64,000 bases of DNA, taken from positions 90,802-154,801 of the IMG/VR virus record IMGVR_UViG_3300043449_002688, one strand, 5' to 3'. Below the pieces are notes generated by a model. It was given only the letters and a program-made list of their open reading frames with translations. It searched no databases and was not told where the DNA came from. Origin of the DNA: a virus. Each line of letters begins with the position of its first letter. The first letter of the stretch is position 1. A program made the position numbers and the translations under genes. This document shows, in pieces, positions 43,330 to 64,000 of the stretch.

Positions 43330-44508
43330 TCATCCTTTTTTATATTTAGGTTTCCACTCTTTTTTAAGATCTTCTTTAATTTCTTTTTTTGACATTTTCA
43401 TAGAACCACATTTTTCCATATCTTTATCGGCTTTTTCCATATCTTTTTTAATTTTAGGAAGGTTTGGCTTAATTTTGCGTTCTTGTGAAATATTTTGTCT
43501 TTGAGCTTCTTTTGCTGAAACTCGCGCAGACGCCGCCGCTCCTCGTAAGGTAGCGCCAGCGCTTCCAACTTTATCATGATAAGGAAGTTTATTTTGAATA
43601 TCTTTAATTGCTCGACCGTATTCCAAGTGTGGAGATAAAGGGTTAGTTTTTTGGCCAGCCATAGAACTTGCCGCCCTTGCTTCTCTTGCATGCATTTTTT
43701 GTCTAGGAGTTTTTCCTTCGTCAATGCGAGCTTTTTCCATATCTTCTTCTTTTTCATCTTCTTCAGATTCTTCTTTTTCCTCTTTCATCATAGGAGGAGC
43801 TTGCATTTTAGGTGGTTTTGGTACAGACATTTTAGGCTTAGGCATTCCCATTTTAGGAGCAGGAGCTGCAGCAGGAGATATAGCTTTTGAAAGCTCTTCA
43901 AATTGTTCAGGGTTTTCTTGAGCCGCTTTAAGCAGCTCTTTAGCTAATTCTAAAGCTGTTTTTTCTGATTTGTTCATATCTTTATCTCCTTTTTCCGTAT
44001 TTTTTTCTGATTTAGGAAGATTTGGTTTTTTCATATCTTTAAGTTCAGATAAAACTCTTTTATGCTCTTTTTCAATATAATCTTTTGTTGTTCCCGAAGG
44101 TTTTACCCCAGACATAAGTCTGGCCCCGACATCTGAAGTTCCGGTTTTTTTTCCTGCTCCAAAATGAGGTTTATGTACGCCTTTTTCATTTTCTTTAGCA
44201 AAAAGAGGATTGGACTGTTTTTCCATATGCTCTTGCCCAACTTCTTGGTTTTCAGGTGAACGCAAATCAGCTTCTTCTTGAAGAGATCTGAGATGTTCTA
44301 GCATTTTACTTCTTTTTTCTGGAGTATCCAATAAAGATAAAGCTTGTTTTAAGCTTTCGTTTTCTTCTTTTACATCATGAGCTTTATCTTCAGGAGAATT
44401 AGCTGGATGAGGTTGATCATCTTTAAGCAAAAGAGCAAATTGCTCTGGTGCAGTTTTTGCTGCTTTTAATAAAACTAAAATGTCTTGTAAAATTTTTGTT
44501 TTTTCCAT
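43330..44508 (-). CDS. charged low-complexity putative internal head protein
   Basis: Repeated DMEK[ACQ], MNKSE, LSKA and KPNLPK modules shared with 44574-48446. Confidence 0.7.
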   Translation of the reverse strand: MEKTKILQDILVLLKAAKTAPEQFALLLKDDQPHPANSPEDKAHDVKEENESLKQALSLLDTPEKRSKMLEHLRSLQEEADLRSPENQEVGQEHMEKQSNPLFAKENEKGVHKPHFGAGKKTGTSDVGARLMSGVKPSGTTKDYIEKEHKRVLSELKDMKKPNLPKSEKNTEKGDKDMNKSEKTALELAKELLKAAQENPEQFEELSKAISPAAAPAPKMGMPKPKMSVPKPPKMQAPPMMKEEKEESEEDEKEEDMEKARIDEGKTPRQKMHAREARAASSMAGQKTNPLSPHLEYGRAIKDIQNKLPYHDKVGSAGATLRGAAASARVSAKEAQRQNISQERKIKPNLPKIKKDMEKADKDMEKCGSMKMSKKEIKEDLKKEWKPKYKKG

Positions 44509-44517
44509 ATATCCTCA

Positions 44518-44526
44518 AAGATTAGG
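44518..44526 (-). promoter_or_regulatory. putative late promoter motif CCTAATCTT
   Basis: 9 nt upstream of the 44508 start. Confidence 0.7.
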
Positions 44527-44573
44527 TATTTAAAACTTTTTTTAACCTATTTTAATTGTTATAAAAATTACAA

Positions 44574-47500
44574 TTATTCTTTTAATTTTGGGCCTATACC
44601 AAGTAGTTTAGATGACATTCTTTCGCCTTCGACCCTGTTTCTTCTCCATACATCTGTTACAAATTTAACGGCAGTTTCCCTATTTTTATGATCATAAGGA
44701 ACTACTTGCCCTGAATGATAGTGATCATGTAATTCTAATGGCAAATCTACTCCAGCTACGTTAACTGGTTTAAAAGCTGGGGGTTCATCGCTCTTTTTAA
44801 TTGGAGCACAAGAGCCTTTTGAATAAGGTTTTTTGCCAGGAACTGGTTTATACCCTTCCCAACATCTTTTTTCTATATCTTGTTCTTCTTTAGAACATTT
44901 CCAGCGTTTTAATGCTGCACCTTTAGGAGTAAGCTTTCCTTCTTTTGAAGTTGGACCTTTTACTCCAGACATTCTAGCGCAAAAACTTTTTTTTCTAGAA
45001 CCACCTTCAGGTTGAGGGCGCTTTAAATCTCTACCTTCTTCACGGTTAATTCTTTCACGTTCTTTATCGTTTAATCCGCCAGTTTTAGCATGTTTTTTAG
45101 GATTATATCCATGAAAAGGTTTATCTTTTTTCTCCATATCTTCTTCTGATTTAGGAAGATTTGGTTTAATTTTTTTAGACTCACCTAGAACTCTTTTTGC
45201 TTCTTTTTTAGCATCTTTGTTTTGTAAAAAAGTTTCTTTATCTTCATGTACGCCTTCTGCTATAGCAGGCTTTCGTTCGGTCCTAATATCTTTGATGGCC
45301 CGTTCATAGTCTTCTTGACTGCCGCCAGCAGAGCGAATCGCTGATTTTACTTTTTCATCAACTCGTGCTTTATTTAAATCTTTTTCTTTTTTAAGCTCAT
45401 CAGCTAAGTTTGCTTGTTTTAATTTAGAATAATATTTTGCATCTTCACTCAAATGATCGGCTACAATTTCTTCTGCTGTTTTTTTATCATTTGTATGTTC
45501 CATTTCAACTTGTAGGCCCATTTTAACTTCTTTTTCATCAAAAGATTTTATATCTTTTTTATCGCCTTTTCCGCCTACTAATTCTTCTTTTTTCATTTCT
45601 TTTTCAGAAGCAGCTAGTTTTTCTGGTTTTTGCAATAAAGATTTAAAATAGCTGTTTGGGCCATTTTTTGCAGCTAATCTTGCCCTTCTATTAATTTTAG
45701 CATCAATTGAAGTCCCTGGAACCCAAGTATCTTTTTCAGGACTATATTTAAGTTCACCAGTATCAATCATTTCTGTTCTTTCTTTCATTTCTGGGGAAAG
45801 AAGTTTTCCGGCTTTTAATTGATCAACTAACTGTCCTTTTTTATCTTTATATCTAACTGCCGCAGGTTCTCCGGTTACTAAAACTTTTCTTTCTCGTGCT
45901 CCTTCTTTAATTTTAACGTGAGTAGTTAATTTAGGAAGGCCCATTCTTGCTCTTAATTTATTTTCAGCGGCTCTTGCTTGAACTTCGCTTCGGTGTCTAA
46001 AAGGAGAACCTTTAAGTTTGGAAGCCTCTCCTACTTCTTTATCCATAATAGTTTGATGTTGCGATGGAGTTCTACCTTCAGGCATTTGCTCTAAATGTGC
46101 AAATTCATGAGTAATTGCGCCTGGATTCCATTGAACTTCCAATTCCTTACTTCTCCAGTCTGGTTTACTAACTCCTTCTATTGCGCCCTTTTTCCTTTCT
46201 CCAGTTTTTTGATTAATTTTTCCTTTTGATGTAACAATTTCTTTGCCATATCTTTTTAGGCCAAATTTTTTATGTTGTTCTATTTGTTTTTGCCCAAATG
46301 GAGATTTAGAAGAAGGATTTCCTTGTATGCCAAAAAGTTTTTGTCTTTGTTCTCTGACGTTTTTAGAAGCTTTTTCCAAACTTTCAAATTTGGCTAACAA
46401 GGTTTTAAAATAATTTGCACTTTTTTTCATAAAACTTCCTATTAACTTTTGTTTTTTAGTTAATTTTTGAGTATGCGTATTTTTTAAAGCTAGAATTGGG
46501 CTAGTTTGAGTTTCTATGTCTCCATACCTTCCGCCTGATTTATATCCAAGCTTAGGTAAAGACTGTTTATAGGTTTGTTGCATATGAGCAGGTATTGGTT
46601 TGTTTAAGTCCATACCAGAAATTCCTGCTTTTGATTCTGCGTCCCAAATATGAACTTGCTTCCCTACGTGGCCTTTATTCCTTAAATGCTGCAAAAGAGA
46701 TTCATGAATAACTTCATTTGGGTTATTTTGATTAAAAAGTATTTTAGATATTGTATTAAAATGCTCATCGGGATATTTTTCTTTTAATTTTTTAAGATAA
46801 TTTTGCCCTTCTTGAGGAGACATTCTAATTATCTGTCCGTTAGCATTAAATCCTTCCGGAGACATTGCTTGCTTAATTTGGGCAGCACCTTGCTTTACGA
46901 AAGATTGGCCAAAATCAGATTGAATTTCATCTATATGAACATTTCCATCTTTACCTTTAGTATATCTTGCCCATCCAAGAGTTTTATCTGAAACAGGATG
47001 TCCACTGTTTTTAGAAGCATTTAACATTTCTTGAAATGTATTAAAAACGCCAGCCTGTTTTAATTGTTTTTCATGCTCAGGAGTATAGTTTAATTGAAAA
47101 ACTTGAGACGGTTCCACGGAATGCCTTTGTTCGTCATAAGCATCTTCATAAGCTGTACTTTTTTTAGGAGTGTATTTAAAATTATTACGATGTTCTTCTT
47201 TTGCATTTTCTATATCATCTCTATATTGATTAACGCTAGGATAATTACTTCTATATACGCCGTAATCTGCTGGGTCAAAAGCATCCATATGTTCATCTAA
47301 TTGCTGTTCTTCTTCTGACTCAGAGTCCATAGCTTCTAATGGTTCGCCATAAGTTGTATGAGAAATGCCAAATTTCATTTTTGGTGAGTTATTAATAAAT
47401 TCACTGACGCGAGAATGATGTAGATTACCTTGACCATCTAAATATTTGCTTAATCCTAATGATTTTAAATCATGTCCTAAGCTTTCTAATTTTCTTTTAT

Positions 47501-48446
47501 GTAATTTTCCTTCAGGATGAGATTCTAACAGCTCTCTTAAAGCTCTATGCCTATTTAATCCTAAAGATACGTCAACAGACTCATCTTCTGGGTCTGCTTT
47601 TTGTAAAAAACTTACATCAAAATTATTTTCTTTCTTTTTAAGCATTTTTTTAAAATACTTAGATGGAGTTAAGCTTGGAGCAGGAGTTCCTTGGCCTTGC
47701 GTTGGGTCAACTCTTTGCATTCGGTCTGCTTGCTGTACCATTCTTTCAGCTTCAGCCATTTTCCTTTCTATTAAAGACTGATCTAGTTCACCTTCGTCGT
47801 ATTCTTGGCCGCCTTCGCCAATATAATTGTCTTGTTTTATTTGTTGAAGCCTTTTCCATCCAATATGTTTAGAAGGAGATTTAATGGACTTCGACATAGG
47901 ATATCCAACATTTAATTGAAAACGAACCTTTTTACCATTTGGTAAAGTAATTTCTGAATAATTATCTTCAATATGATCTCCAATTATGTGGCCGCTGCCG
48001 CCTTCTGGCGGATTATGTTTAGGATCATGAGAATGTTCTTTATGAAATCCTGTATTAGATTGTATGTGAGCTTGTTGATTATATTTTTTAGCAAAATTAG
48101 AAGCTTCTTCTGGAGAAATATCATGAACCATAACTGTAGGTTCAGCTTCACCGCCAAGCCATTTACCGCCAACATGTTGCCAACGATGTCCGGCAGCTTC
48201 AAGATCAGCAATTAGATCATTATGTTTTTGTTCTGATTCTTCAGGAGACAGTTTGTCTTTTTTGTGCCCAGTTAAAAGAGCAAATTTGCCTTCTTTTAAG
48301 TATTTATCTACATCTTGTTCGGTTTGAAAAGGATTATGTTCAGCTTTTTTTAAAGCTTTTTGTTTTTTAGTCAAATATTTTTCTCGCAATGCCAAACCAG
48401 GCATTGTAGAAAGTCCATAATCTTTAGAAAGTCTTTTCTTTGCCAT
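44574..48446 (-). CDS. polyvalent protein: DUF3293/SAM-lyase-like, EIQSD domain, HExxH zincin, DUF5661, DUF6321-like, CWxGY module
   Basis: LLTGH...SPEE...H..L..DL...G.W...EPTV.V...A.KYNQ; HIDEIQSD; THEFAH...EVQAR; MG..VEMEHT.D...A.EI..DHL.ED..YY.KL; RKKSFCARMSG...RWKC; CWEGY. Confidence 0.75.
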   Translation of the reverse strand: MAKKRLSKDYGLSTMPGLALREKYLTKKQKALKKAEHNPFQTEQDVDKYLKEGKFALLTGHKKDKLSPEESEQKHNDLIADLEAAGHRWQHVGGKWLGGEAEPTVMVHDISPEEASNFAKKYNQQAHIQSNTGFHKEHSHDPKHNPPEGGSGHIIGDHIEDNYSEITLPNGKKVRFQLNVGYPMSKSIKSPSKHIGWKRLQQIKQDNYIGEGGQEYDEGELDQSLIERKMAEAERMVQQADRMQRVDPTQGQGTPAPSLTPSKYFKKMLKKKENNFDVSFLQKADPEDESVDVSLGLNRHRALRELLESHPEGKLHKRKLESLGHDLKSLGLSKYLDGQGNLHHSRVSEFINNSPKMKFGISHTTYGEPLEAMDSESEEEQQLDEHMDAFDPADYGVYRSNYPSVNQYRDDIENAKEEHRNNFKYTPKKSTAYEDAYDEQRHSVEPSQVFQLNYTPEHEKQLKQAGVFNTFQEMLNASKNSGHPVSDKTLGWARYTKGKDGNVHIDEIQSDFGQSFVKQGAAQIKQAMSPEGFNANGQIIRMSPQEGQNYLKKLKEKYPDEHFNTISKILFNQNNPNEVIHESLLQHLRNKGHVGKQVHIWDAESKAGISGMDLNKPIPAHMQQTYKQSLPKLGYKSGGRYGDIETQTSPILALKNTHTQKLTKKQKLIGSFMKKSANYFKTLLAKFESLEKASKNVREQRQKLFGIQGNPSSKSPFGQKQIEQHKKFGLKRYGKEIVTSKGKINQKTGERKKGAIEGVSKPDWRSKELEVQWNPGAITHEFAHLEQMPEGRTPSQHQTIMDKEVGEASKLKGSPFRHRSEVQARAAENKLRARMGLPKLTTHVKIKEGARERKVLVTGEPAAVRYKDKKGQLVDQLKAGKLLSPEMKERTEMIDTGELKYSPEKDTWVPGTSIDAKINRRARLAAKNGPNSYFKSLLQKPEKLAASEKEMKKEELVGGKGDKKDIKSFDEKEVKMGLQVEMEHTNDKKTAEEIVADHLSEDAKYYSKLKQANLADELKKEKDLNKARVDEKVKSAIRSAGGSQEDYERAIKDIRTERKPAIAEGVHEDKETFLQNKDAKKEAKRVLGESKKIKPNLPKSEEDMEKKDKPFHGYNPKKHAKTGGLNDKERERINREEGRDLKRPQPEGGSRKKSFCARMSGVKGPTSKEGKLTPKGAALKRWKCSKEEQDIEKRCWEGYKPVPGKKPYSKGSCAPIKKSDEPPAFKPVNVAGVDLPLELHDHYHSGQVVPYDHKNRETAVKFVTDVWRRNRVEGERMSSKLLGIGPKLKE

Positions 48447-48455
48447 AACTTATCT

Positions 48456-48464: not shown

Positions 48465-48465
48465 G

Positions 48466-49374
48466 TTAGTATTCTTTAACTATTTCATTGCCAGATTTTA
48501 ATTGAGCAGAATGTATTTTTAGTCCAATTTTATCGGCGGTTAAAACAGGTCCCATTTTACTAAATTTTTCCCAATCTTCTTTATCTATTGAAATATGGGG
48601 AAGGAAATTTTTTAAATAAGGCCCATATTTAGCTGAACCTTCTCTTATATGATCTATATGAGGCGGAGCGCCATAAGCTAAAAGCACATGATGAACTCCT
48701 CCATCTGCTGCTGGTAATTTATGGGGCATAAACAACAATTTATTTTCATTAATTGAATTTGGTATTGAAAATTTTTCAAGATGTTTTTGTATTTCTTGAG
48801 GATTTATTTTGCTGTTATCGCCAAAAAATTTAACAGTCATATGCATGGGTACGCCATCGCTTCTGTGAGTTTTACCTGAAAGACTTATTGGATGTAAAAG
48901 TATTACTCCAGTTGAGGCTTTTTTAGCATAAGATTCGGATTTAATTAAATCTTGTAAAAAAAGTTTAATTTCTTCTTTTTTAATTTTAACAGATTTTGCC
49001 TTTAACCAAGTGTCGTGCCATTTTTTAGCATCTTCGGTCATATCTGGAGATGGGATTATATTTTTTTTAGATATTTGCTCTGCATGTTCGGCAAGTTTTG
49101 TGCCTATTTTTTTTCTTCGATATTCTTTTTCTACTTCAAATTGGAAAGGCATTATTCCTTGTTTTTTGTGAGTTACAGCAATAAAACCAAGCTGTTCGCC
49201 ATCTTTTGTTGCTTTTACAGTAAAGTCATGTTTTTTAGGGTCAAAATATTTTGCATCAACAGTAAAAGGCTCTACCGTAATTTTAGTCCGAGGTTTTTTA
49301 TTAACTTTTTTTTCAGGAAAAGTTTGCTGTAATTCTTGTTGGTATTCTTGTGTTAGTCTTTTAAACTTATTCAT
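48466..49374 (-). CDS. GNAT acetyltransferase fused to 2H phosphoesterase
   Basis: VEKEYRRKKIGTKL (GNAT motif A); HMTV and PHISI (two Hx[TS] motifs). Confidence 0.75.
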   Translation of the reverse strand: MNKFKRLTQEYQQELQQTFPEKKVNKKPRTKITVEPFTVDAKYFDPKKHDFTVKATKDGEQLGFIAVTHKKQGIMPFQFEVEKEYRRKKIGTKLAEHAEQISKKNIIPSPDMTEDAKKWHDTWLKAKSVKIKKEEIKLFLQDLIKSESYAKKASTGVILLHPISLSGKTHRSDGVPMHMTVKFFGDNSKINPQEIQKHLEKFSIPNSINENKLLFMPHKLPAADGGVHHVLLAYGAPPHIDHIREGSAKYGPYLKNFLPHISIDKEDWEKFSKMGPVLTADKIGLKIHSAQLKSGNEIVKEY

Positions 49375-50155
49375 TTGAATTTTTCCTTACATATTCAAAT
49401 GTATAACCTTTGCACGATTTTCTATGTCCTATTAAAACATTTGAAACTGAAGATCTTGATACATTAAGATCTTTTGCTGCATCTGTAACTAATCTATAAA
49501 CTTTTCCATTTTGATGACAAAGAATTGAAGGTAGGTTGTCAATTCTTTTTTGTTGAGCTGTTTTAATATTTTGCAATTGTTTTTTATTTAATTTTTTTCC
49601 AAACATTGGATTTTTTTCACCAAGTTTGGAGTTTGATATATTTTTTTTAGATTCTTCAGATAGTTTTTTGCCGCGTTTTGGATGGAATCCTTTTTCTATT
49701 TGAGCCTTATTCCAGTTTTTAAGTGCTATAATTGGTAAAATTAACTTTTCAGGATTTTTCCTAAAGACACTTTTTACCGAGTTTGAAATATTAATTTTAT
49801 GTTCTTGAGAAAGTTTTTTACCTTTATGGGAGTTAGACATTTTAATTTTTGAAAATTCAGACCATCTTTTATTTAAACCGCCTGTATTTAAATTATAGCC
49901 ATTTGGATACACTGTATTTAATTTTAAAATCCATTCATTTTCTTTTTTATTAAGCTCTTCAATTGTTTCCGCCGAATCTATCTGCTCTATTTTGAAAGAT
50001 TCTATTCCGTATTTTTTAATAGCGGAAGATATAGCAATGCAATCACTTCGTTTTAAATGCTGGTTTATCCTTTTTTCCAAAGACCTAACGGTTTGGCCAA
50101 CATAAATTTTATTATTAATTAAATTTGTTAATATATATATTATCATTTGTGCCAC
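49367..50155 (-). mobile_element. free-standing GIY-YIG homing endonuclease with NUMOD3/NUMOD1 DNA-binding repeats
   Basis: IIYILTN...IYVGQT...R...H, E..WI, NGYN; KKLSEE.K..IS repeats; NPMFGK; C-terminal Y....DAAKDL...KGYTFEY. Confidence 0.9.
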
Positions 50156-53100
50156 TCTGTTTCTAATATGTTTTCAGGAAGTAATCCAGCTTTTTGCTCT
50201 GCATAAATTGTTTTAGAAGGATTTTTACGATTATGTTCTCCAGCTTTTTCGGACCAATTAACCCAATTATTTTGGCCCATAGTCTCTGAAGCTAAAGCCT
50301 TCTGCGCTAATGGGCTAAACATTTCTTTATGGGCTAAGTAGCTCATATGCTCACCTTTAGGGCCAAATTGACTGTTAGTTAATCCATGGCCAAAAGCATC
50401 ATGTACAATTCTAAACACATCATTAGCTAAAAGTGGAGTGCCATCGTGTTTAAATTCTGTTTGCGTTAACATTGGATGATTTTGAGATTGCCCTTCTGAA
50501 CCAAACCCTTGCTCTGTAGGATAATACCATAAATGATTGTTAACATGTAGATCATGAAGCATATCCTTAGAAGATTTATATGGATTTTCTTGCCCAGGCT
50601 GCATTCTAGAAATTTTAAGACCACTATTAATTAAATGTTTAAATTGTTTTCCGGTTTCACCAATTAATGCATTATAGGCAGCTTTAGTCTCATGATGCTC
50701 AGGTTGATGCTGCATTGACTCATATGCTTGAGCTATTGTTTTTCCATGCTCTGGGTTAAGATTAACTTTATAATTATGGCTTAGTTTGATGTTATTTAAC
50801 TTGGCATAACTATCAGCTATATTTTTTATATTGGTAGTATTTTTTTGTAGATCTTCTGATTTACCAAATATTTTTTGCCATTCCCATTGATCAGAATGCC
50901 GTCTTGTATCTTTATGAATTTGATGAATTTCAGCATCAATTCCAGGTCTAACAATAACTTCCTGTTCTTTTGCCGCTCTAGAGCTTAAAGGTCCAACTTT
51001 TTGTTTTTCTATAAATTGGCCATATTGAGGTAAGAATGATTTAATTTTATCTTCTGGAATCCAAGCTGAAACTATATGATTATAGCTTTGTGAATCTTCT
51101 GGATCAAAACTGCTTTTAGGGTAAATGCCTGAAGATTCTGTAATATTTGTTAAAAATGGAGTCCAAGAAGAATGTGTTTGTTGGTTAAAAAATTTACCAT
51201 TTTTATGGTATTTATCCATTTCCGATTGAGATAACTGTCTATGTAATAAAAATTCTCTTTGTTTTGTATTTGGGTTTATTCTTGATTCAGTTCTGCCAGC
51301 TAATTTATTTGTCATTCTTAATTTTGCATGTTTAGACGGATCAGGGATTTTAGCGCGAGGGTCATACCCTGCAAATGTTTCGCCAGATGTTCCACCTGTC
51401 CAACGCTCTACGTTTTTTGCTGCATCTGTAGTTAGTTCTGAATGAGGTTTAAATGGGCCATAAAGTCTGCGAGCAGCACCTTTATTTAAATTTTCTGGTT
51501 TTTGCAATAAATTTTTAAAATAATAAGAAGCTTTTTTAAGATTAAGTTCTATATTTTTTTCAGAAGCAGCAAGCTTTTCTTTTTTTCGTTTTATATAATT
51601 TGGATTTTCTGTAACTTTTTGCTTTATTCTAGTATCGTTAGTTGTATTATATATATATTCTAAAGTATGAGAATTGGTATTTTTATTTTGAGCTATTGCC
51701 CATTGAATATTGTTATTTCTACCATTTTTACTTTTAGCTAAATAATCTAAATCATTTGAATCAGTTTTAGAATTTTGAGATAATCTCAATTGTATATCAA
51801 AATCATCAGTCGCTCTAGTCAAATAATTTAAAGTATTTTTAGAAGCACCGGTATTACCGGCGATCTTTTTTTGCATATTAATATCATTATTTTTAATAGC
51901 TATGTCAGCTATGTTATGTATAAAATTTTCGCCAAGTGCGGGATTTTCAGCTATTGTTTGTTTTATATTATCATTATTAGTCTTGTTATAGACATCATAT
52001 AAAAAAAATGGGTCAGCGCCAGTATTTGATGCTACCGATTGTTTTATGTTATGGTCATTAGTTGTAGTATATATATGGCGCATAAAATCTTTATGAATAT
52101 TTGGATTTTTTGCTACTGATTGTTTTATGTCATCTTGATCAGTTTTATTGTATATGTCATATAAAAAATCTGGATGCGTATTTGGATTTTGCGCTACCAG
52201 TTTTTTTTGCCAAGATTTAGATGTATTGTATATGTGCTGTAAAGTATCTTGATCAGTTTTAGGATTTTCTGCTATTTCAGAAATAATATTTATATGTTTT
52301 TCAGGTATTTGTAGATTTTGAATTTTTTTAATATTTTTTAATGATTTTGTATCAGTAATTAAATTAGGGTTATGTCTTAAAACTTCCGCTTGATGTTCTG
52401 GAGATAAATCTGAAAATTCAAAGTTATTTTTAAGTTCATAATCATCAAATCCTCCACCAAAAATACCTTTAATTTCAGGATTTTTAAGTAATTCAACAAT
52501 ATCTTTATGATATTCTTTGGTAGGCTTAAGATTGCTTTGACCCTTCATTTCTCCTAAAAATCCATTATTTAAAATAAAACTTAAATGAGGCTCATGAAAA
52601 GTTTTATTGTCAAAACTACGAGATGTGCGTAGGCTTAATATTCTATCATCTGGATGATAGTCTTCGTTTCCGCAATGTCCTAAAGCTTTACCTTCTGCTT
52701 CACATGATGGAACATTTAAATTAAACCAATCTCTATTAAATTTAATTCCATTAATTATTTTTTTTGTTTTTTCGGTAGGTATAACTAGTTCACGGTTTTG
52801 AGATAGCTTGTTAATATAACTTTGTTTCGCTTGGTCAAGTAGTTTAATACCTGAATTTAAATCATGTTCTTTATCAAATCTTACATCAGCTATATTTGGA
52901 ATATGCTGTGAGCTAGAAAAATCTGATATTTTTTGTTTTATCTCAGGTGTGAATTGTTTTGGATTTTGTCTATAATTTTTTGTAGCCCAAGTTTGCCAAT
53001 TTGAATTAGGTAGCTGTGAAGCCCAATTGACGAATTCTACATGTTCAGGTTTTGCAGAATCTGCGCCTAGCATTTGTAAAATGTCTTTTTTACCTTTTTC

Positions 53101-55867: not shown

Positions 55868-57048
55868 TTTGCACCAATATTGCCTTCGTCGGCTTGAGCA
55901 TTATGTGATGCAACGGAAATAGCGTTTCCTTCGTTATCTTTAACCATTCCCGACCTTACAGATCTCCAAACTGCTCTACCATTTTTAATAACTTTTTTTC
56001 TTCCTTTTTTAACAGTTCCAACTGGATAAAAAAGTTTTATAGCTTTATTTAAATTTTCGGTAAGGTCATCAACTTCTGATTTAGCTACTTCTTTCTTTTT
56101 ATCTTTAGCCATATCTACAATTTTATGTACTAATCCAATTACTTTTTTAAAAGCTTCTGGATTTTTATCAGCTAAATCAGTAAGTTTTGGAATTTTTTCA
56201 TTTACCATTTCAAGAAGATTAGCAATTTTGTTTGCTTGCTTAGCATGATCTTCATCTTCTTTATCGCTTTGCTTAGCTTCTTCTACTGCAGAAGCTCCCA
56301 TCTTTTCTTTGGGTTCAGATCGTTCAGATTCAAGCTGTTGTTGAGCTTGTGGGTTAGATTGTTGGCCGCTTAAAGCTTCCATTAAATTATTTGGTTGAAA
56401 TTGTTGAGCCTGCTGTTGCATTTGTTGTTGCATTTGTTGTTGTGATTGTTGAGCCGGAGCATTTATTTGTTGAACTGTTGCTTGAATAAATTGAGATTCT
56501 AATTCTAATGCCTGCTTTGCATCTGGGCCTGCTACAAATTTACCAATTTTAGCAGCTTCAGCTACAGGTTCTGGAGATTTTGGTTGATGTCTATCGTAAA
56601 GATTTGGCGGTAAATTTAAATTAAATAAATCATTTTCAAGAGTAAGCTCGTCCTTTTGCATTTCTTGATATTCTTGTTGTTCTGGATCATACATTTCAAT
56701 ATTTCCAGTGTAACCTGAAAGATCTGAAGCTTTTTTGGCTTCGATTAAAGTTAAACCAATTCCAACTTTCATTTTTTGGCCAAATAAAGATTTGTACCCA
56801 TCTATTAAAAATGGAAGATTTTCTGCTATTGAAATAGGAAGAAGTAATACTTGTCTTTCGTAAGTAGAAAGAAGAACTTCGCCTCCTCTTTCTATTACTA
56901 TAGATTTAACTTTGTCAATTAAAGACCAAATTTGATAATCTAAGCTTTTTGCATCTTCAAAATAGCCAGCATCAATTAAAGAATTAATTTTGTCGGAAAC
57001 ATCTTCTAGCGATATGAGGATATAAACTTTGTTTTCTGTAGATGCCAT
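55864..57048 (-). CDS. degenerate mCpol/GGDEF-like palm domain protein with poly-Q linker
   Basis: VYI.I..EDV..KI...; RGGEVLL; MKVGIG.TL.EA..A......G spacing matches mCpol, but DGD and GGD are replaced. Confidence 0.6.
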   Translation of the reverse strand: MASTENKVYILISLEDVSDKINSLIDAGYFEDAKSLDYQIWSLIDKVKSIVIERGGEVLLSTYERQVLLLPISIAENLPFLIDGYKSLFGQKMKVGIGLTLIEAKKASDLSGYTGNIEMYDPEQQEYQEMQKDELTLENDLFNLNLPPNLYDRHQPKSPEPVAEAAKIGKFVAGPDAKQALELESQFIQATVQQINAPAQQSQQQMQQQMQQQAQQFQPNNLMEALSGQQSNPQAQQQLESERSEPKEKMGASAVEEAKQSDKEDEDHAKQANKIANLLEMVNEKIPKLTDLADKNPEAFKKVIGLVHKIVDMAKDKKKEVAKSEVDDLTENLNKAIKLFYPVGTVKKGRKKVIKNGRAVWRSVRSGMVKDNEGNAISVASHNAQADEGNIGAK

Positions 57049-57065: not shown

Positions 57066-58730
57066 TTAAATATCAAATTTACGTTTAACAAGAAGATGTG
57101 CTTTTAGTGTTAACAAAAATACTTTTACTGCATCTTCATCTGCGTTTGGATGAAATTTTAAATCCCAAACTCCGTTTTCTGTTTTTTTAATAACTTCAAC
57201 AAATTTATAAGGATTTCCTTCTTCATCTTTTTTCATTACAGAAAAACATGCGCAAGGATTAAATGCTGGATTACCATCTTTATCTTTTTTAAATTCAGGA
57301 ACTAAGCAGTGTGGGCAGTGAGATTTATAAAGCTCTTCTTCTGTAGTCGTATATTTTTCAGATTTATTTAATTTTGATTTAAAATAATCTGATTTAATAA
57401 CAGAACCTGCAGGTTTTGGTGCAGCAGTAGCTTTTGGTTTTGCTGTTGGATTTTTAGGCATTTTAGCCCCTGGTGTTTTTGGTGGGGTATAATTGCCTTT
57501 AGCAGAAGACTGCGCTTGCTTTGCTGCTGATGCTGCCGGATTATTGCTAGCAGGAACCGGAGGCTTAGGTTCTTTCGGCATAGATGGTTTTACAGGTTGG
57601 CCAGCGCCTTTTGGCATTTCAGCTTTAGATACTTTTTCTGGCAAATCCTTGCCTTTTGATTCTCTATCCCATTCTTTAACTTTTTCTTTTCCGCCTAAAG
57701 CTTTAGTGCCAGTTTTAGTGTGCGCCCAGCGACGTTGTGCTTCAGAAGCATAAGGTTTCATTAATAGCTCTGCTTTTTTCTTAAAATAAGAATCAGCTTT
57801 TGTCATAGGGGTTTTTGGAGCCGGAGCTGTATGGGAAGGAGAAACTCCTTCAAGAGAAGTCATTGGAGCTTCTACTTGAGCTTCTGGTAAAACTTGTTTT
57901 TTAATTTCACCTTGTTTTGTATCAATTACTTTTTCTTTCGGAACTTTTTGTTCATCAGTAGGTTTGTTTTTAATTTCAGCAAGTTCTTTATAAGAAATAG
58001 ATTCTTCTGTAATATTAGAATCAGTTTGTTTTGCTTTAAGTTCTTTTTTAAATTTTTCTTCTGGGGTTATGCTTGTTTCTAGTTTGTTTTCAACGTCAGC
58101 AACTTCTTTTTCTGAAATTTTATCTAAATCTTCTTCTATTTTTTTTCGTCCCATTTCTTTTGTCATTAAAGCATCAACAAGTTTACCAATAACTGAAGTC
58201 AATTCTTTAATATTGGCATGAGACATTTGCCATTTAACGCTTTCACTATCTAAAGAAGGTTTGATTTCATTTAAATTAATTATTTCTTTTATTACACTTA
58301 AATCAGGTGTAGTTGAATCTGAAGATATTTTACTTTTGACTTCATCTATTTTTTCTTCAAAAAAATCATAGGTTTCGCCGACTGTCATCATATGACCAGA
58401 AACAGCAGGCAAACTTTGTTTTTCAAACGAATGTATAACTTTTCCGTTTTGAACGAATTCAGCTCGATATTGATCTATATCTTGTTTATCAAATTGAATA
58501 ACAATATCGTCTTTACCAGGGAATTTAACAACCTTAGATTCTCCTCGTTTCATTGGTTTAATTGTCTGAATTAACCAAGATAATATTGTTCGAGGAACTA
58601 CAATTAAGGGTAAATAAAACTCAAGAGGATCGACTACCGAAGAAGTTCCTCTTTTAAAAATAGCTTTTTCCAAGACTTCATAGCCTTGGTCTCCAATTAT
58701 AGATTTAAGGAGTTTTTCGCTAGTATTCAT
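57066..58730 (-). CDS. multi-module putative internal head protein
   Basis: PYASEAQRRWAH...EWD..SKGK.LPEKV module, Pro/Lys linker, C-terminal CPHC..CAC. Confidence 0.65.
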   Translation of the reverse strand: MNTSEKLLKSIIGDQGYEVLEKAIFKRGTSSVVDPLEFYLPLIVVPRTILSWLIQTIKPMKRGESKVVKFPGKDDIVIQFDKQDIDQYRAEFVQNGKVIHSFEKQSLPAVSGHMMTVGETYDFFEEKIDEVKSKISSDSTTPDLSVIKEIINLNEIKPSLDSESVKWQMSHANIKELTSVIGKLVDALMTKEMGRKKIEEDLDKISEKEVADVENKLETSITPEEKFKKELKAKQTDSNITEESISYKELAEIKNKPTDEQKVPKEKVIDTKQGEIKKQVLPEAQVEAPMTSLEGVSPSHTAPAPKTPMTKADSYFKKKAELLMKPYASEAQRRWAHTKTGTKALGGKEKVKEWDRESKGKDLPEKVSKAEMPKGAGQPVKPSMPKEPKPPVPASNNPAASAAKQAQSSAKGNYTPPKTPGAKMPKNPTAKPKATAAPKPAGSVIKSDYFKSKLNKSEKYTTTEEELYKSHCPHCLVPEFKKDKDGNPAFNPCACFSVMKKDEEGNPYKFVEVIKKTENGVWDLKFHPNADEDAVKVFLLTLKAHLLVKRKFDI

Positions 58731-58739
58731 GTTGGCTCG

Positions 58740-59135
58740 TTATAAAATGCCAGCTTGTGAACTATATTTTAAATCGTCAACAATCAAATAGGCAAATACT
58801 GTATTGACGTTTGCAATTATCCCTTGATTTGGGCCAACTGAAATAATAGTATAATCGTTTGGCTTAAGGCAAACTCCATCAGCGCCTCCAGTCGGAGCAG
58901 TCAATGTGGCTGGGTCTCCGATTTTGGCAAAAGCTGTTGTGCCTGTGCTGTTGTAAAGAGCAATTAGGCTTCCTGCTTCAACTCTTAAAAGAGTGTTTGC
59001 AGCACCTAAAACTTGAACGTGCCCTAAAATTGGACCTACTACTTTTAAACCGCCTGCATATTGGTTAAAGCTGTAATCTGTAGCGTCGTGTCCACTGTAT
59101 CTATTATTTGATGCTTTTGATCTTGCTCCGTTCAT
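58740..59135 (-). CDS. small structural/hypothetical protein
   Basis: 131 aa beta-rich; AGGAG SD; own late motif. Confidence 0.65.
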   Translation of the reverse strand: MNGARSKASNNRYSGHDATDYSFNQYAGGLKVVGPILGHVQVLGAANTLLRVEAGSLIALYNSTGTTAFAKIGDPATLTAPTGGADGVCLKPNDYTIISVGPNQGIIANVNTVFAYLIVDDLKYSSQAGIL

Positions 59136-59156
59136 GATAAACTCCTATTTTTACTT

Positions 59157-59165
59157 AAGATTAGG
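59157..59165 (-). promoter_or_regulatory. putative late promoter motif CCTAATCTT
   Basis: Intergenic copy. Confidence 0.7.
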
Positions 59166-59167
59166 CT

Positions 59168-60073
59168 TTACAGCTTGCCACCTTCAGAACCGTTATTGTC
59201 AGAACCTATAAATCCGCCAGTAGAAGCATTTTGATATCTAATATCCATAATATCTTGGTTAGGGTCATTATTTAAATCACTTAGCACATGTTCTCTTATT
59301 ACCATACATTGATATGGCATTCTTTCTAAAGTCCTTTGAAAGGTATTGGGATTTGTTACTTGAGAAACCCTAACCTCGTGTAAAAGTCTTGCTACAATAA
59401 AATATGGAGTATATCTGTATCTAATTGAATATACTGTGCCTTTCATAGTTTTTGGGTTATATCCAGGTCGGTTTTGAGTAAGCCATTTAATAAAGCCTTC
59501 TGCTGTTATTGAAAAATCTACATTCTCCTGATATTCTTTCCCATCTGCATCAATCAAATGTTCTACGCAAGTTGCAGGATATTGTAGCTTATCTATTCCT
59601 ATAGTATTTGCTTCAACATATTGCATAGCAACAACTCGCATTTCAATATCTTCTAGGTAGAATCTATCGTAAGGTGCTAAAAGCACTGGCTTATCGCAAT
59701 TTTCATATTGCATTTGTGGAGTGCAAATAGAAACATCATGCTTAACCATACCTTCTACTTCTATGTTCCAATCTGATGTATTATTGCTAAAGGAAAGGTA
59801 AAGTTTGCCGATTTCTTTGTAAATAAAGCCATCAGAAGATCTTTTGTCGGATTGAACGGCATGTACATCTCCAATAGAAGCCATACCAGTAGGATCTGGA
59901 ATAGCCCTGTAATGAGTTACATAAACGCCTTGTCCTTCAATTAGGCGATTAAAAGCTTGAACGTCAAACGACTGTTGCCATTGATCTAATTTAAAAACCT
60001 GCTGACCACCAGTTGGTGATTTCAGTCTTTTTTGTCTTGGCCCGCCTTTTCGTTTTGGAGTTCCTACATTCAT
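59168..60073 (-). CDS. putative head closure / neck protein
   Basis: F..LI...G..V...RA..DP, DGFIY, L.PYDR..L, YSIRY...P pattern of myovirus head-completion proteins. Confidence 0.6.
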   Translation of the reverse strand: MNVGTPKRKGGPRQKRLKSPTGGQQVFKLDQWQQSFDVQAFNRLIEGQGVYVTHYRAIPDPTGMASIGDVHAVQSDKRSSDGFIYKEIGKLYLSFSNNTSDWNIEVEGMVKHDVSICTPQMQYENCDKPVLLAPYDRFYLEDIEMRVVAMQYVEANTIGIDKLQYPATCVEHLIDADGKEYQENVDFSITAEGFIKWLTQNRPGYNPKTMKGTVYSIRYRYTPYFIVARLLHEVRVSQVTNPNTFQRTLERMPYQCMVIREHVLSDLNNDPNQDIMDIRYQNASTGGFIGSDNNGSEGGKL

Positions 60074-60075
60074 TT

Positions 60076-61494
60076 TTAATCCTTTTTAAGATCTAATAAG
60101 CATATGGCATCTTCAGTTCCATTTATTTCTTTTGCCAATGCATATGGGCTTAAAGTTTTATTTTCTAATCCTTCAATTATTTCGCTTTTTTTCATGAAAG
60201 AAATTTCATTTAAGTCTGCGTTATATACAACATAAATGTCAGAAGATTTTTTATTTTCTGCTTTTTTTGTATTTGAAAAAATAAACTTACGAAGAATTTC
60301 AAACTGTTCTTCTTCTGATTTATTTGTATCTTCAGGTTTTATTTTTTTTGCCCATTCATAAGCTTTTTGGTGCCCTTGTTTGATTTCTTTAATATTTTTT
60401 TCAGCATTTTCTTTTGCGTATTCTTTGTATTTTTTTCTTTTAACAGGATTAACTAGAATATCTCTAGCGTGAGCTAAAATTTCTTCAGTAAATTTAGGGC
60501 TTTTAGGATTGTATCCATATACATCAGTAATAAAGCTGCCAACTGAAACCAAAGCATCACGAGAAAAATTTGAAAGCAGTCCAGAATGGATTTTTTTAGC
60601 TTGCTCTTTTCCATAATGACGCTCTAATTGACTCATGATATTATGAAAACCTTCATGATAAATAGTAGAATCTACCGCTCGCCCTCTTTCTTTTTGTTTT
60701 TCAGGGGTTAATTCAGTAGTTTCTTTTTTTTCTTTTGAAGGCTTTCTTGGCATTCTTGGTTTTTTAGGTTTTTCTCGTAAAAGCCTTTCATGTTCTTCTT
60801 TGTTATCTCCTAAAGATGCTGCATACATTTTTTTGTACCAATCATTATAGCGTAAGTTATAATCTTTTATTATCTCTTTCTTTTTTTGGGCATGTTCTGT
60901 AAGTTTTTGTTGATAATCGTCATCGCCTTCTTCAAATTTAGATCTTAATTTCCCTACTAAAGCTGCAGATTTTGGACCATGTGGAGTAGGAGCATTTAAG
61001 CCTAAAGTATTTCGATCAAATTTATTAGATATAGTTTTTGCTGCAGCGTCTAACCCAGATTGTTTTGTATGTTTTGTCGCACTTCCGCTTAATCTAAAAA
61101 CTTGTTTTTGATCTAAATCTTTCAATTGAGCGTTAGCCACTCTTTTTCCATATAAATCTTTTTGCCTTTTAGTTTCAATAGGCTGAACTTCTTGATCTGG
61201 TCTTGTAGAAGTTTTAGGAAAAAATGGGAACGTAATCTGGGGCCTAGACATTTTGCCTAGTTCTTCTGATTTATCAAGCTCTTCATTCCATTTAATTCCA
61301 GATTCTTTTTTTTCTGCTAAAAATTTAGCAATAGATTTATGTGGAGCAGCTCCTATAGCAGAAATATCGCCATTTTCATCTTTACAAAAAAAGGCATGTA
61401 GCCCACCATGAGTTGCTACATAAACAATATTTTTACCGTCTTTAGTTTTACCGGCAATAAAAGTTTCTGCTATTTGATCTTTGTCTATTTTCAT
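60076..61494 (-). CDS. protein with inserted HExxH zincin metallopeptidase-like domain
   Basis: TIYHEGFH...EEILA; bounded by LDKSEE and TNKSEE. Confidence 0.65.
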   Translation of the reverse strand: MKIDKDQIAETFIAGKTKDGKNIVYVATHGGLHAFFCKDENGDISAIGAAPHKSIAKFLAEKKESGIKWNEELDKSEELGKMSRPQITFPFFPKTSTRPDQEVQPIETKRQKDLYGKRVANAQLKDLDQKQVFRLSGSATKHTKQSGLDAAAKTISNKFDRNTLGLNAPTPHGPKSAALVGKLRSKFEEGDDDYQQKLTEHAQKKKEIIKDYNLRYNDWYKKMYAASLGDNKEEHERLLREKPKKPRMPRKPSKEKKETTELTPEKQKERGRAVDSTIYHEGFHNIMSQLERHYGKEQAKKIHSGLLSNFSRDALVSVGSFITDVYGYNPKSPKFTEEILAHARDILVNPVKRKKYKEYAKENAEKNIKEIKQGHQKAYEWAKKIKPEDTNKSEEEQFEILRKFIFSNTKKAENKKSSDIYVVYNADLNEISFMKKSEIIEGLENKTLSPYALAKEINGTEDAICLLDLKKD

Positions 61495-61496
61495 TT

Positions 61497-62552
61497 TTAC
61501 TTCTGCTTATTGACAACTTTAATATTATCTTTAAGCTTCTCCTCGGAAGTTTTTTGAGAATTTGATTTAATTTTATCTAAATCTTCATCTCTTTTTCTGC
61601 CTGTATCAGGCACAAAATTTCTATCTCTCATAGGCTCTTTTGTTTTTTCATCAATTCTTTTTTTATACCAACTTTGAAAATTAGTTGAAAAATTAAATTC
61701 TGTAGAATCTTGATTCTTTTTTACGCTAGCTGGCATTCTACCTGATTGAATGTTAAATGGGCTATTTTTGCTATATTTTTTATATTTAATTACATAAGGT
61801 TCATTATGTAATTTATTTTCAGGGATATCGCTGGGGTAAAGATTATGCCCATATAACCATGCGTATGCAGCCCTATGATAATCTCCTTTTTGCCGCCTAA
61901 CAATATGGTCAGCTAAATGTCTTGCCAAATCTAATTCCATTTGAGGCTTTTCTTTTAAAAAAGATTCTGCCTGATCTCTATTCATGGCTTTTAGTTTTTC
62001 ATATTCTGGTGTAATTTTTCCAGCAATTTTCATTCTATTGACAACTTCATCAATAGTATTTTTCATTAATCCCCATTTTCCTATTGCAATTTGACCTTTG
62101 TTTGCCCCACCGCCTGGAGCAGGCTTATGTTTAACATTTTTTCCGCCTGAACTTTCGATTTGCATGGTCGTCCATAAAAAAGAATCCATAGGATGAGACC
62201 CAAAATCTGTAGAAGCAGTTTTAGTTTCTACTTTAGGCGTAGGAATTGATGGAGTATATTCAGGTTTGTTAATTTGAGTTAAAGTTGGACTTAGCATGGT
62301 AGCTAAAGAAAATCCTACTGCTGCAGCTTTTTCTTTAAGTCCTTTTTCTAGGTCATTAAACTCTACCCAAGAATGAGAATGTCCTGTAGAAAGATATTTA
62401 GAAATTTTAATAGCTGCATCTTTTAAGTTTTTAGATCTTAAAGCAATTCTTTCTGTTCTAGGAAACATTGCAAATAAAGGAGCTAAATCCTCATAAGAGT
62501 TGATTTTAAATTGTTTCCTATTAAAATTATGCGTTTCAATATACAAAAACAT
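61497..62552 (-). CDS. lytic transglycosylase (SLT-like) domain protein
   Basis: QIESSGG catalytic Glu motif, AIGKWGLM, AAYAW..G. Confidence 0.75.
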   Translation of the reverse strand: MFLYIETHNFNRKQFKINSYEDLAPLFAMFPRTERIALRSKNLKDAAIKISKYLSTGHSHSWVEFNDLEKGLKEKAAAVGFSLATMLSPTLTQINKPEYTPSIPTPKVETKTASTDFGSHPMDSFLWTTMQIESSGGKNVKHKPAPGGGANKGQIAIGKWGLMKNTIDEVVNRMKIAGKITPEYEKLKAMNRDQAESFLKEKPQMELDLARHLADHIVRRQKGDYHRAAYAWLYGHNLYPSDIPENKLHNEPYVIKYKKYSKNSPFNIQSGRMPASVKKNQDSTEFNFSTNFQSWYKKRIDEKTKEPMRDRNFVPDTGRKRDEDLDKIKSNSQKTSEEKLKDNIKVVNKQK

Positions 62553-63853
62553 TATCCCGCCTTTCTAGTAGCTTTTCCCATTAATTTTTCTAATTTTTTG
62601 CCTATAAGCTTATGAACAGTGTGATCACCTTGCGATTCATCAATAGTATCAACAATTGATTTTATATGATTTAGCTTATATGCTTTTTTATTTTTATTGT
62701 ATTCTTTTGGCTTAACCAAATGATCAAATATCATGTTGTTAATAGAAGTTAATCCTGGATGGTCCCAATTTGGGTTTGACATTCCGGCTTTATAAACATC
62801 TGCCATTTCTTTTGGAGACATTTTATCTATTAATCCATCAAAAAGATTTGTTAAATATTTTTTTTCTCTAGGAGAGAGCATAGCTTTTCGATTGGCTACA
62901 TCAAAAACAGCAGAAACCGCATCTCTTGGGTTTTTAGGTAATGATGAAAAAATTTCTTTATTAATTGGCTGTTTAAATTGTTTTATTAAAGCAGGATTAA
63001 AATGTTCATGAGCAAATTCGTCGTTATAAAGATAGTTTTTATCGATAAAATTTGCCCATTCATCCATTCTTTCCCATCTAGATATAAAATTATTATAAAC
63101 GTGTTTTCGTATTGCCGGATCTTTAATATGAGATACTTGATTAGCTAATTGTTTTTGAATTTTCATTCCGTTTTTTTTCCACCAATCAACTAAAGGCTTA
63201 TGTGAAGATATTTGATTTTGGCTAATATTAGAAAGAGCATTAAGCCCATGCGATTTTAAATAGCCAAAAGGAGTTTCCGGTTCATCATAGTCCACATCTT
63301 CCAAAGAATCTTTGTACGCAAAACTTCTTTCATGATCAATTGCCAAAGGTACGGTATTGCCTTTTTCTTTATAAATTAGAAGGTTGCCTAAATGCCGATC
63401 TAAATTATTTGTCAAATAATCCATAACTCCAATTTGATGAATATGTAAAGGATTAATATTATGTTCACCTATTTCATATTGTCTTTCAAATATAGGGTCA
63501 GCATTGTTTTTAAATTTATGAACAGTAAAAGGATGATTTTCATGCTCATGGACAGAGACATCTTCACAAAGATGACCGATACCGGCAGCATTAAAAAGAC
63601 TTTTAGTTGCGATTGTTGCCCAACCATGCAAAGGAAAGTCTGTCATGTCTGTTTCGTCATTAACTGGATGATATGGTTTTGCCATATAAGTTTCTGGACT
63701 AGAGAGTTTTTTAGTTTTTTTATTTGAAAGATATTGTACTGTATGCGTATGTACCAATTTAGGGCTAATGCCTTCATCAAAATATTTTGAATTTTGTTTT
63801 TCTGGGTGCTTAATAAAATTAACGTAATTAGCATGCGCAGGAAAATCTTTCAT
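62552..63853 (-). CDS. PI3/PI4-kinase / HipA-like kinase domain protein
   Basis: YMAKP, DYLTNNLDRHLGNLL (catalytic DRHxxN), LAIDHERSF. Confidence 0.8.
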   Translation of the reverse strand: MKDFPAHANYVNFIKHPEKQNSKYFDEGISPKLVHTHTVQYLSNKKTKKLSSPETYMAKPYHPVNDETDMTDFPLHGWATIATKSLFNAAGIGHLCEDVSVHEHENHPFTVHKFKNNADPIFERQYEIGEHNINPLHIHQIGVMDYLTNNLDRHLGNLLIYKEKGNTVPLAIDHERSFAYKDSLEDVDYDEPETPFGYLKSHGLNALSNISQNQISSHKPLVDWWKKNGMKIQKQLANQVSHIKDPAIRKHVYNNFISRWERMDEWANFIDKNYLYNDEFAHEHFNPALIKQFKQPINKEIFSSLPKNPRDAVSAVFDVANRKAMLSPREKKYLTNLFDGLIDKMSPKEMADVYKAGMSNPNWDHPGLTSINNMIFDHLVKPKEYNKNKKAYKLNHIKSIVDTIDESQGDHTVHKLIGKKLEKLMGKATRKAG

Positions 63854-64000
63854 ATGTTGTTTATGGTCAACAATGTTCTTTCCTTCAGGATGAGTGTTTT
63901 GTTTTATTGATTCGTTAAAATCTTCATCATCAAAAGCTTTTTTTAGATCAAATGCAGAAAGATAATATAGTGTTTCGCATAAATTTTTAGCGGATTAAGG

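Follow-up and report, generated by a model that had tools for sequence, protein, structure and literature searches.

A lysine motif shared by head proteins and modular polyvalent proteins of an Mx1-like myophage, and its predicted reading by the head protease

One widespread class of predicted "first-strike" effectors of phages is that of the polyvalent proteins, which also occur in conjugative elements. They string together 2-15 unrelated, shuffled domains and are encoded beside portal/terminase-type virion genes; their packaging and injection have been predicted (Iyer, Burroughs, Anand, de Souza, Aravind 2017, PMC5512222). Here, we analyzed nine open reading frames (ORFs) that are best explained as such Aravind-type proteins of an Mx1-like myophage, carrying swappable, mostly enzyme-like modules, together with a short lysine motif that recurs in them. 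They lie in the last 64 kb (64,000 nucleotides, hereafter "the window") of the phage record IMGVR_UViG_3300043449_002688, a single contig of 154,801 bp whose ends share an overlap of ~130 nt (2 mismatches), so that it closes on itself. The overlap joins window positions 63854-64000 to genome positions 1-405 (L001). The closest named relative is Myxococcus phage Mx1, with a capsid protein 53.6% identical and a conserved gene order. Capsid homologues in metagenomes exceed 1500, many of them on contigs of 135-173 kb, and distant relatives of the capsid protein include SPO1 gp6.1 and other Herelleviridae capsid proteins. Gene order is conserved between this phage and the relatives G001 (83% capsid identity), G002, and G005, whereas module content differs.

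Nine modular ORFs and the motif at their joints

A preliminary description, made from the sequence alone, had recognized nine late genes interleaved with neck genes. All nine were present as described, on the minus strand. We name them by their first window position; a slash marks the predicted cut, P1 is the residue before it (numbered in amino acids, aa), and P1' is the residue after it.

43330..44508, minus: 43330 ORF, 392 aa, Lys-rich (16.8% Lys), largely low complexity, just upstream of the tail-sheath gene
44574..48446, minus: 44574 ORF, 1290-aa polyvalent protein; Pfam DUF3293 (aa 65-126), DUF5661 (965-1011), DUF6321 (1119-1182), and further modules
48466..49374, minus: 48466 ORF, 302 aa; Pfam GNAT (aa 43-104), LIK/SES (P1 = 145, nt 48937-48948), C-terminal module
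50143..53946, minus: 50143 ORF, 1267-aa polyvalent protein; Nudix (aa 16-118), alpha/beta module (~139-271), helical and beta modules, LRV/HEAT repeats (~566-814), module ~823-1035, C-terminal domain (1036-1267)
55864..57048, minus: 55864 ORF, 394 aa, Gln-rich linker, one conserved site LNK/A (P1 = 335)
57066..58730, minus: 57066 ORF, 554 aa; N-terminal LLK/S (P1 = 9) and LEK/A (P1 = 22); junctions at P1 = 311, 374, 456, and 469
60076..61494, minus: 60076 ORF, 472 aa; conserved N-terminal 80 aa, LDK/SEE (P1 = 75, nt 61267-61278), then a module
61497..62552, minus: 61497 ORF, 351 aa; N-terminal part, LEK/G (P1 = 70, nt 62340-62351), module with E-S, GLMK, and AYAWLYG motifs
62552..64000, minus: 62552 ORF, PI3/PI4-kinase-like (Pfam PI3_PI4_kinase); LKK/A (nt 63935-63946) before the kinase part

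The view of these genes as strings of unrelated domains was borne out in part. Pfam recovered Nudix and LRV_2 in the 50143 ORF, the three DUF families in the 44574 ORF, GNAT, and the PI3/PI4 kinase, but ten segments searched in isolation matched no ART, 2H, or transglycosylase family, and nothing ART-like appeared at E <= 1. The two proposed "ART-like" domains thus found no Pfam counterpart, and neither did the transglycosylase proposed for the 61497 ORF, which also lacked any PDB sequence match; that label came from motifs seen by eye, and the figure of "about 15 enzymes" was a guess. The 50143 ORF has 76 polyvalent relatives, which carry ART-PolyVal (PF18760), DUF3293, DUF5661, GNAT, Nudix, and ParB, and its C-terminal domain is common to cyanophage proteins annotated as "lysin / large polyvalent protein". 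The 62552 ORF is 567 aa long in truth, starts with MDLKSW, and runs continuously across the contig end once the overlap is removed (its G002 orthologue has 591 aa); a frameshift, an intron, or a broken, start-less kinase gene were ruled out, as the frame simply crosses the contig end.

Every motif quoted in the preliminary description was found, including DLKKA before the kinase (63935-63946), in the frame that crosses the contig end. Overall, the nine ORFs contain 31 copies of [LM]xK[SAG], whereas shuffles that preserve amino-acid composition give 13.0 +/- 3.6, and 0/1000 of them reach 31. The other 162 ORFs hold 82 occurrences against 77.6 expected, and the large tail and baseplate ORFs are each at expectation, in line with the noted scarcity of the motif in those genes. 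The broader [LMIV] form that had been proposed for counting did less well, since [IV]xK[SAG] stands at 0.48x and Ile/Val dilutes the signal. Neither the reversed motif (1.23x) nor [LM]K[SAG] (1.08x), [LM]xxK[SAG] (0.69x), or [LM]xR[SAG] (0.61x) approaches this level in the nine ORFs, and replacing Lys by Glu gave no enrichment there. At P1', Ser is enriched 2.8x and Ala 3.0x. The extended form [LM]xK[SA]E is found 8 times against 0.8 expected; in the entire 49,452-residue proteome it occurs 12 times, the other four in the scaffold-like protein (3) and the capsid protein (1). A tandem form, xK/SE[DE]LxK/[GAS], is seen at many joints and recurs in G001 and the 76 polyvalent relatives. Admitting Asn at P1' was rejected as a motif extension, as it brings in false sites such as GLMK/N inside the putative SLT motif.

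Could the enrichment be a by-product of Lys-rich, helical, low-complexity composition? The nine ORFs are indeed 10-17% Lys, and the 43330 ORF is largely low complexity, but we consider this very improbable given the composition-keeping shuffles, the flat register-shifted, reversed, and Arg variants, and a Lys-rich 2152-aa ORF of the head module that shows no enrichment, neither in this genome nor in the six relatives in whose stretch it is present. Among the genes interleaved with the nine, the two neck-type genes of 53946..55867 have 0 sites (0.4 and 0.7 expected), as do the two virion structural genes of 58740..60073. Enrichment also varies among the nine: the 55864 ORF has 1 site against 1.0 expected and is itself not enriched, and the 43330 ORF has 7 against 1.3-1.7, with LLK/AA..PEQF and KPNLPK..DMEK each present twice; its G001 orthologue (199 aa) likewise has 7, against 1.0 expected.

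Some of these linkers are repeated in the DNA. A 61-nt direct repeat (69-80% identity) at 43410-43470, 43968-44028, and 45107-45167 encodes a KPNLPK(SE)..DMEK module in two different genes. A second linker, YFKxLLxKPE, often with KLAASE, lies at window 45619-45650, 51491-51522, and 57355-57386; its 32-nt repeat reaches 94% identity between different polyprotein genes.

We next compared the motif sites with module borders, defined as peaks in the pooled ends of BLAST blocks against G001, G002, G005, Mx1, and the 76 polyvalent homologues (a MAFFT alignment of polyvalent proteins took in 30 of 77). Of the 20 boundary peaks, ten have a site no more than 12 aa away, where random placement gives 2.8, and 0/20,000 permutations reach ten; a smaller first test gave 10/26 against 4.0 expected (p = 0.002). 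All but one of the seven largest peaks are at most 9 residues from a site, and the Pfam envelopes of the nine ORFs contain no site. In the 50143 ORF, the boundaries at aa 140, 277, 818, and 1035 (37, 36, 24, and 74 ends of high-scoring segment pairs, HSPs) are 0-9 aa from the sites at P1 = 131, 284, 822, and 1035. Three of its junctions are as follows:

53551..53562, minus: junction LKK/S after the Nudix domain (P1 = 131); 29 HSP starts in aa 121-140
51478..51540, minus: double junction LKK/ASYYFKNLLQKPENLNK/GAARRLYG (P1 = 805, 822); 23 HSP starts in aa 801-820
50839..50850, minus: junction (FGKSED)LQK/N (P1 = 1035) before the C-terminal domain; the strongest boundary peak (n = 74, distance 0)

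At the equivalent positions, G001 reads LNK/AEDLEK/GAARRLYG for the double junction and KSESLEK/GLKGDW for the last one. In G002 the Nudix domain is fused directly to GNAT and "2H" (the label of the preliminary description), and homology with the 50143 ORF stops at aa 132. An AlphaFold2 model of residues 1-1200 (mean predicted local distance difference test, pLDDT, 69.8) shows several separate confident segments, with pLDDT below 50 at 88-135, 275-279, 813-832, and 967-1037, so that five of the seven sites (131, 284, 805/822, 1035) lie at or near low-confidence linkers. A Foldseek search with this 1200-aa model returned only HEAT/ARM/LRV repeat proteins and was uninformative for the other modules.

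Similar junctions were evident in the other ORFs. The 44574 ORF has sites at P1 = 34, 186, 283, 675, 692, 1026, and 1099, and two of its boundary peaks, 184 and 687, have sites at a distance of 2 and 5 aa. In the 57066 ORF, the peaks at 319 and 371 are 8 and 3 aa away, sites 9, 22, and 456 are kept in the G001 and G002 orthologues, and G001 carries an inserted module of ~110 aa exactly at site 374 of our ORF. The peak at aa 73 of the 60076 ORF (n = 12) is 2 aa from a site, and the site of the 61497 ORF, where HSPs start at aa 41-80, is kept in orthologues as LTK/G or LSK/S. The conserved sites of the 57066 ORF include its N-terminal LLK/S and LEK/A, and LLK/A of the 43330 ORF is likewise kept in orthologues.

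Architectures differ between this genome, G001, G002, and the 76 relatives, and modules move between genes with their junctions at sites. G002 has one 746-aa protein in which Nudix and GNAT are joined to the C-terminal module of the 48466 ORF, so that both halves of that ORF lie within a Nudix fusion, and G001 holds the C-terminal module only (homology from aa 149). Similarly, the main module of our 60076 ORF sits inside a 1688-aa Nudix polyprotein of G001 (aa 65-393 matching aa 683-1020).

The same motif in scaffold, capsid protein, and head protease

The head module (genome 403-24390, minus strand) lies across the contig join, directly upstream of the nine-ORF region, in the following order:

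terminase and portal genes
284-aa gene downstream of the portal gene; weak PHROG matches (E about 3e-4) to minor-head-protein and head-morphogenesis families
L002:724-2418, minus: 564-aa protease-kinase fusion
L001:11681-18139, minus: 2152-aa ORF
L001:9293-10126: scaffold-like protein, followed by the capsid protein
L001:3054-4145, minus: ClpP 1, complete ClpP domain, with an HNH-type domain fused in frame at the N-terminus
L001:1786-2511, minus: ClpP 2, complete ClpP domain; then an adaptor-like gene

Scaffold and capsid protein provided independent tests of the motif. The scaffold-like ORF, just upstream of the capsid gene, is acidic, carries PEME repeats, and has 4 sites against 0.4-0.5 expected. 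Among 31 IMG/VR relatives (GC 0.31-0.60), the scaffold-equivalent ORF was flagged for the motif in nearly every locus, and 23 distinct scaffolds spanning the same GC range hold 141 sites against 16.7 expected (8.5x), 92 of them followed by Glu. The Arg version occurs in these 23 scaffolds 2 times against 2.0 expected, where Lys remains at 12% and Arg at 1.5%. The pattern is repeated in Mx1, both in the scaffold and in giant proteins annotated as "NUDIX hydrolase", "kinase", and "prohead protease". In 117 of the 120 relatives listed, the capsid protein starts with a variable stretch of 7-20 aa and then reads L-[VMIA]-K-[TA]-LEAG; the remaining three begin further in. A peptide resembling this N-terminus, LxK/ within the first 35 aa, is present in the 43330, 44574, and 57066 ORFs, where it is conserved in orthologues, and absent from the other six. 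In distant relatives, an ORF of ~165-177 aa downstream of the capsid gene is motif-enriched as well (3-4 sites against 0.2-0.4; L025:16692-17198, L031:16003-16497, L032:17475-18008). The 2152-aa ORF between protease and scaffold has no Pfam or PHROG match and is kept in close relatives at 1989-2200 aa, with 11% Lys.

The head protease, as judged from alignment and a structural model, is an assemblin-fold serine protease of the HK97 gp4-like kind with conserved His and Ser. Its first ~285 residues match PHROG 1028, "head maturation protease" (E 1.6e-8), and it shares 26% identity across NFEH and GFSIEGA with that of a Twort-like Staphylococcus phage (E 5e-5); its alignment to VGFSV of HK97 gp4 is weak. 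Residues H42 and S119 are invariant in 16 relatives and align with NYEH and GFSIEGA of the Twort-like protease. In the AlphaFold2 model of residues 1-160, 14 of 16 ten-residue blocks have pLDDT 84-96 and the other two 70 and 80. The best structural matches (VIA-align) are T4 gp21, with Z 9.8 and a root-mean-square deviation of 2.9 Å over 118 aa, and herpes assemblins (Z 7-9), above a background of Z 5-6 for unrelated MCE-domain rows; the top Foldseek matches are herpes proteases too, though at E >= 2e-3.

A protease of this type was found in every relative examined, either alone (300 aa) or fused to variable cargo. In Mx1-type phages it heads proteins of 1137-1342 aa that end in a kinase-like domain. 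Here its partner is a PI3/PI4-kinase-like domain (Pfam E 2.5e-12); the 62552 ORF holds a second kinase-like domain. The two parts of the fusion are separated by LKK/G (aa 282-285), and homology among relatives stops at K284/G285, the motif site at the end of the catalytic domain. The search for the motif in capsid and protease, suggested by the preliminary description, was therefore positive in both. The segment between core and joint is conserved as LxK/[TA]L[TD]AGxGNxAPSxLxGGAAL, a copy of the capsid N-terminus; it (aa ~203-235, and also the C-terminus of L007:2045-2833) matches residues 15-70 of SPO1 gp6.1 (PDB 9VEL, E 0.021). It may be the protease's ticket into the procapsid.

Lysine-directed maturation is familiar from other phages. 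HK97 gp5 is cut after Lys103, a Lys-specific cut with a hydrophobic P3, and its sequence reads FNK103/S104 there, with LIQK/A, ELTK/S, and ELIK/S in the delta domain. The A511 capsid protein is cut at Lys23/Ser24. The Twort-like Staphylococcus phage has LSK/S in its capsid protein, FVK/S in its protease, many xK/S in its scaffold, and the same mimicry of the capsid segment in the protease. By this analogy, the head protease of our phage would cut capsid protein and scaffold at the motif during maturation. The motif is a real, specific, clade-wide signal that is common to scaffold, capsid N-terminus, and head protease, and that marks module borders.

These data bear on whether the junction peptide is cut at all. 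It might stay uncut, as a conserved linker or a docking element (a capsid-targeting signal that binds scaffold or portal would be one example), or serve as a recombination joint, with the proteins acting intact. The junction modules are repeated in the DNA (the 61-nt repeat three times; the 32-nt repeat in two genes at 94% identity), modules are visibly shuffled between genes, the second linker (YFKxLLxKPE / KLAASE) accompanies the motif and marks the aa 938 border of the 44574 ORF without any [LM]xK, and polyvalent proteins of the N4 vRNAP type are packaged uncut (PMC5512222). We nevertheless find this reading unlikely. The motif is 8.5x enriched in scaffolds, and these unshuffled proteins are textbook substrates of proteases. 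It is fixed at the N-terminus of the capsid protein as well as where the protease domain ends. Its P1 is strictly Lys rather than Arg, even at GC 0.6, which suits the specificity of an enzyme better than a generic linker.

A different enzyme, either a phage ClpP paralogue or a host protease, might read the sites, with the assemblin-fold enzyme handling only capsid and scaffold. Both ClpP proteins match PHROG "head maturation protease" families and lie between the capsid gene and the polyprotein genes. Yet ClpP turned up only within the closest subclade (L008, L009, L013, L014, L018). The stretches of Mx1 and G005 that were read lack it, although their scaffolds and polyproteins bear the motif too, which makes the ClpPs less likely as its readers. 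ClpP as a universal motif-reading enzyme was rejected on the ground of its absence from Mx1-type relatives. The assemblin-fold protease is universal and itself bears the motif, so that we regard cutting by another enzyme as improbable.

Predicted dicing of the polyproteins in the prohead

The Lys code common to scaffold, capsid, protease, and cargo joints implies dicing of the polyproteins by the morphogenetic protease, with separate enzymes as the probable products; the reading that fits best is that the prohead protease cuts at the joints. In the mechanism we propose, the polyproteins would be made late, together with head and neck proteins, and would enter the prohead. There the assemblin-fold, HK97 gp4-like protease would cut them after Lys, in the same event that degrades the scaffold and shortens the capsid protein, and the freed modules would remain in the head and exit with the DNA. 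We give this full sequence of cleavage, packaging, and ejection a probability of roughly 0.55.

The location of the genes is consistent with a role in the virion. The nine variable ORFs alternate with conserved neck-type genes up to the tail-sheath gene, tightly packed and with overlapping stops and starts, and their order is conserved across the clade. The neighboring features are:

40282-43035: tail-sheath gene, the downstream limit of the nine-ORF region
53946..55867, minus: two interleaved neck-type genes (336 and 303 aa), conserved in G001, G002, and G005
58740..60073, minus: two interleaved virion structural genes (131 and 301 aa), PHROG 1004 "virion structural protein"

A search for related loci with the 59168 ORF alone as query returned zero relatives. 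A GIY-YIG / NUMOD3 homing-endonuclease gene lies between two polyprotein genes (window 49367-50155, minus strand), a position that holds no gene in G001 or G002.

Alternatively, the proteins could be late cytoplasmic enzymes that never enter the virion, with the motif serving turnover or some unrelated function and its likeness to the scaffold incidental. None of the nine is fused to MuF or portal, and the virion link of the 50143-type C-terminal domain is a weak annotation, Rhodococcus phage E3 gp205 "structural protein"; a literature search found no paper on Mx1 virion proteins or phage E3 gp205. However, the tight packing of the genes with those for neck and sheath, directly behind the head module and in conserved order, the resemblance of the N-terminal LxK/ peptides to the capsid propeptide, and the relatives that fuse such modules straight to the head protease leave little probability for a purely cytoplasmic role.

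Several observations weigh against dicing by the head protease. The correspondence of motif and border is incomplete: a boundary coincides with just 12 of the 32 internal sites, and 10 of the 20 peaks have no site inside 12 aa, five of them being more than 50 aa away. Site-less boundaries include aa 389 of the 60076 ORF and aa 938 of the 44574 ORF; in the latter, peaks 257, 938, and 1010 are 26, 88, and 16 aa from sites, and the border at 938 is marked by the second linker YFKSLLQKPEKLAASE, which has no [LM]xK site and is repeated in the 50143 ORF at 94% DNA identity. Two of the seven sites in the 50143 ORF (488 and 738) fall within confident helices (block pLDDT 89 and 96). As for the counts, the motif was defined only after these sequences had been inspected, Gly at P1' is at background level in this genome (1.05x), and sites in linker modules are repeated also at the DNA level, so that the count partly reflects duplication and some sites depend on one another. 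Among the 76 polyvalent relatives, a raw enrichment of 2.0x drops to 246 distinct contexts where 176 are expected, and the reversed motif reaches 1.8x as well. As for the enzyme, Pfam Peptidase_S78 and S77 gave no match at E <= 0.1 in any of 16 protease members, and the two ClpPs of the late region could be the acting enzyme in this subclade. Cleavage, packaging, and ejection are steps that we infer throughout this clade.

Relation to known systems and implications

Like published polyvalent proteins, the ORFs combine several Pfam families each, with architectures that vary among relatives, and they belong to a portal-terminase phage, with terminase, portal, capsid, scaffold, and protease directly upstream and neck and sheath genes interleaved or downstream. 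As to signature domains such as ART-PolyVal or the LPD families, relatives carry ART-PolyVal, and our own ORFs match DUF3293, DUF5661, and DUF6321 but nothing ART-like at E <= 1. Assemblin-like peptidases have already been mentioned in polyvalent proteins (PMC5512222), and virion-packaged Nudix and ART domains have been noted in myoviruses, as has a Nudix fused to the capsid-processing peptidase (PMC9503650). These studies see embedded zincin-like metallopeptidases as the main processing enzymes and give no cleavage motif. In contrast, we found no zincin-like metallopeptidase here, and the joints carry the motif of scaffold, capsid, and head protease. The concept of head-packaged polyvalent effectors, some fused to assemblin-like peptidases, has already been published; what is new is the shared cleavage code between domains.

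In T4 and phiKZ-like phages, a prohead protease processes head proteins that are ejected, almost always by removal of an N-terminal propeptide (13/14 in SPN3US; PMC10052503). T4 (gp21, acting on the IPs and Alt) and phiKZ-like phages (gp175; SPN3US gp245) resemble the system proposed here in having one assemblin-fold protease, a short motif, many head proteins as substrates, multiply cut propeptides, and ejected cargo. They differ in that phiKZ-like specificity is after Glu, whereas here the cut is predicted after Lys and the motif lies between modules, implying several retained products. With HK97 gp4 (MEROPS S78) and the Herelleviridae proteases, the enzyme has in common a distant sequence similarity around His and Ser and, as predicted from the motif, Lys at P1, a hydrophobic P3, and Ser or Ala at P1'. 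Unlike these, it lacks a Pfam S78 match, is fused to a PI3/4-kinase-like domain (564 aa) or, in Mx1, to more than 1000 aa of cargo, and, judging from the motif, its substrates would include effector polyproteins.

A more general proposal is tentative. Across the large and mostly uncultured Mx1-like clade, one code, [LM]-x-K/[SAG], may be read by a cargo-fused assemblin-fold protease that dices modular polyproteins inside the capsid; modules would carry their own cut sites between genes, and the arsenal could thus be freely reshuffled without re-evolving packaging or processing. As Mx1 can be cultivated on Myxococcus xanthus, the prediction is directly testable. If it is true, the motif gives a concrete processing rule, by which mature products could be predicted from sequence in hundreds of uncultured genomes, and a shared cut motif would explain how modules are so freely exchanged.

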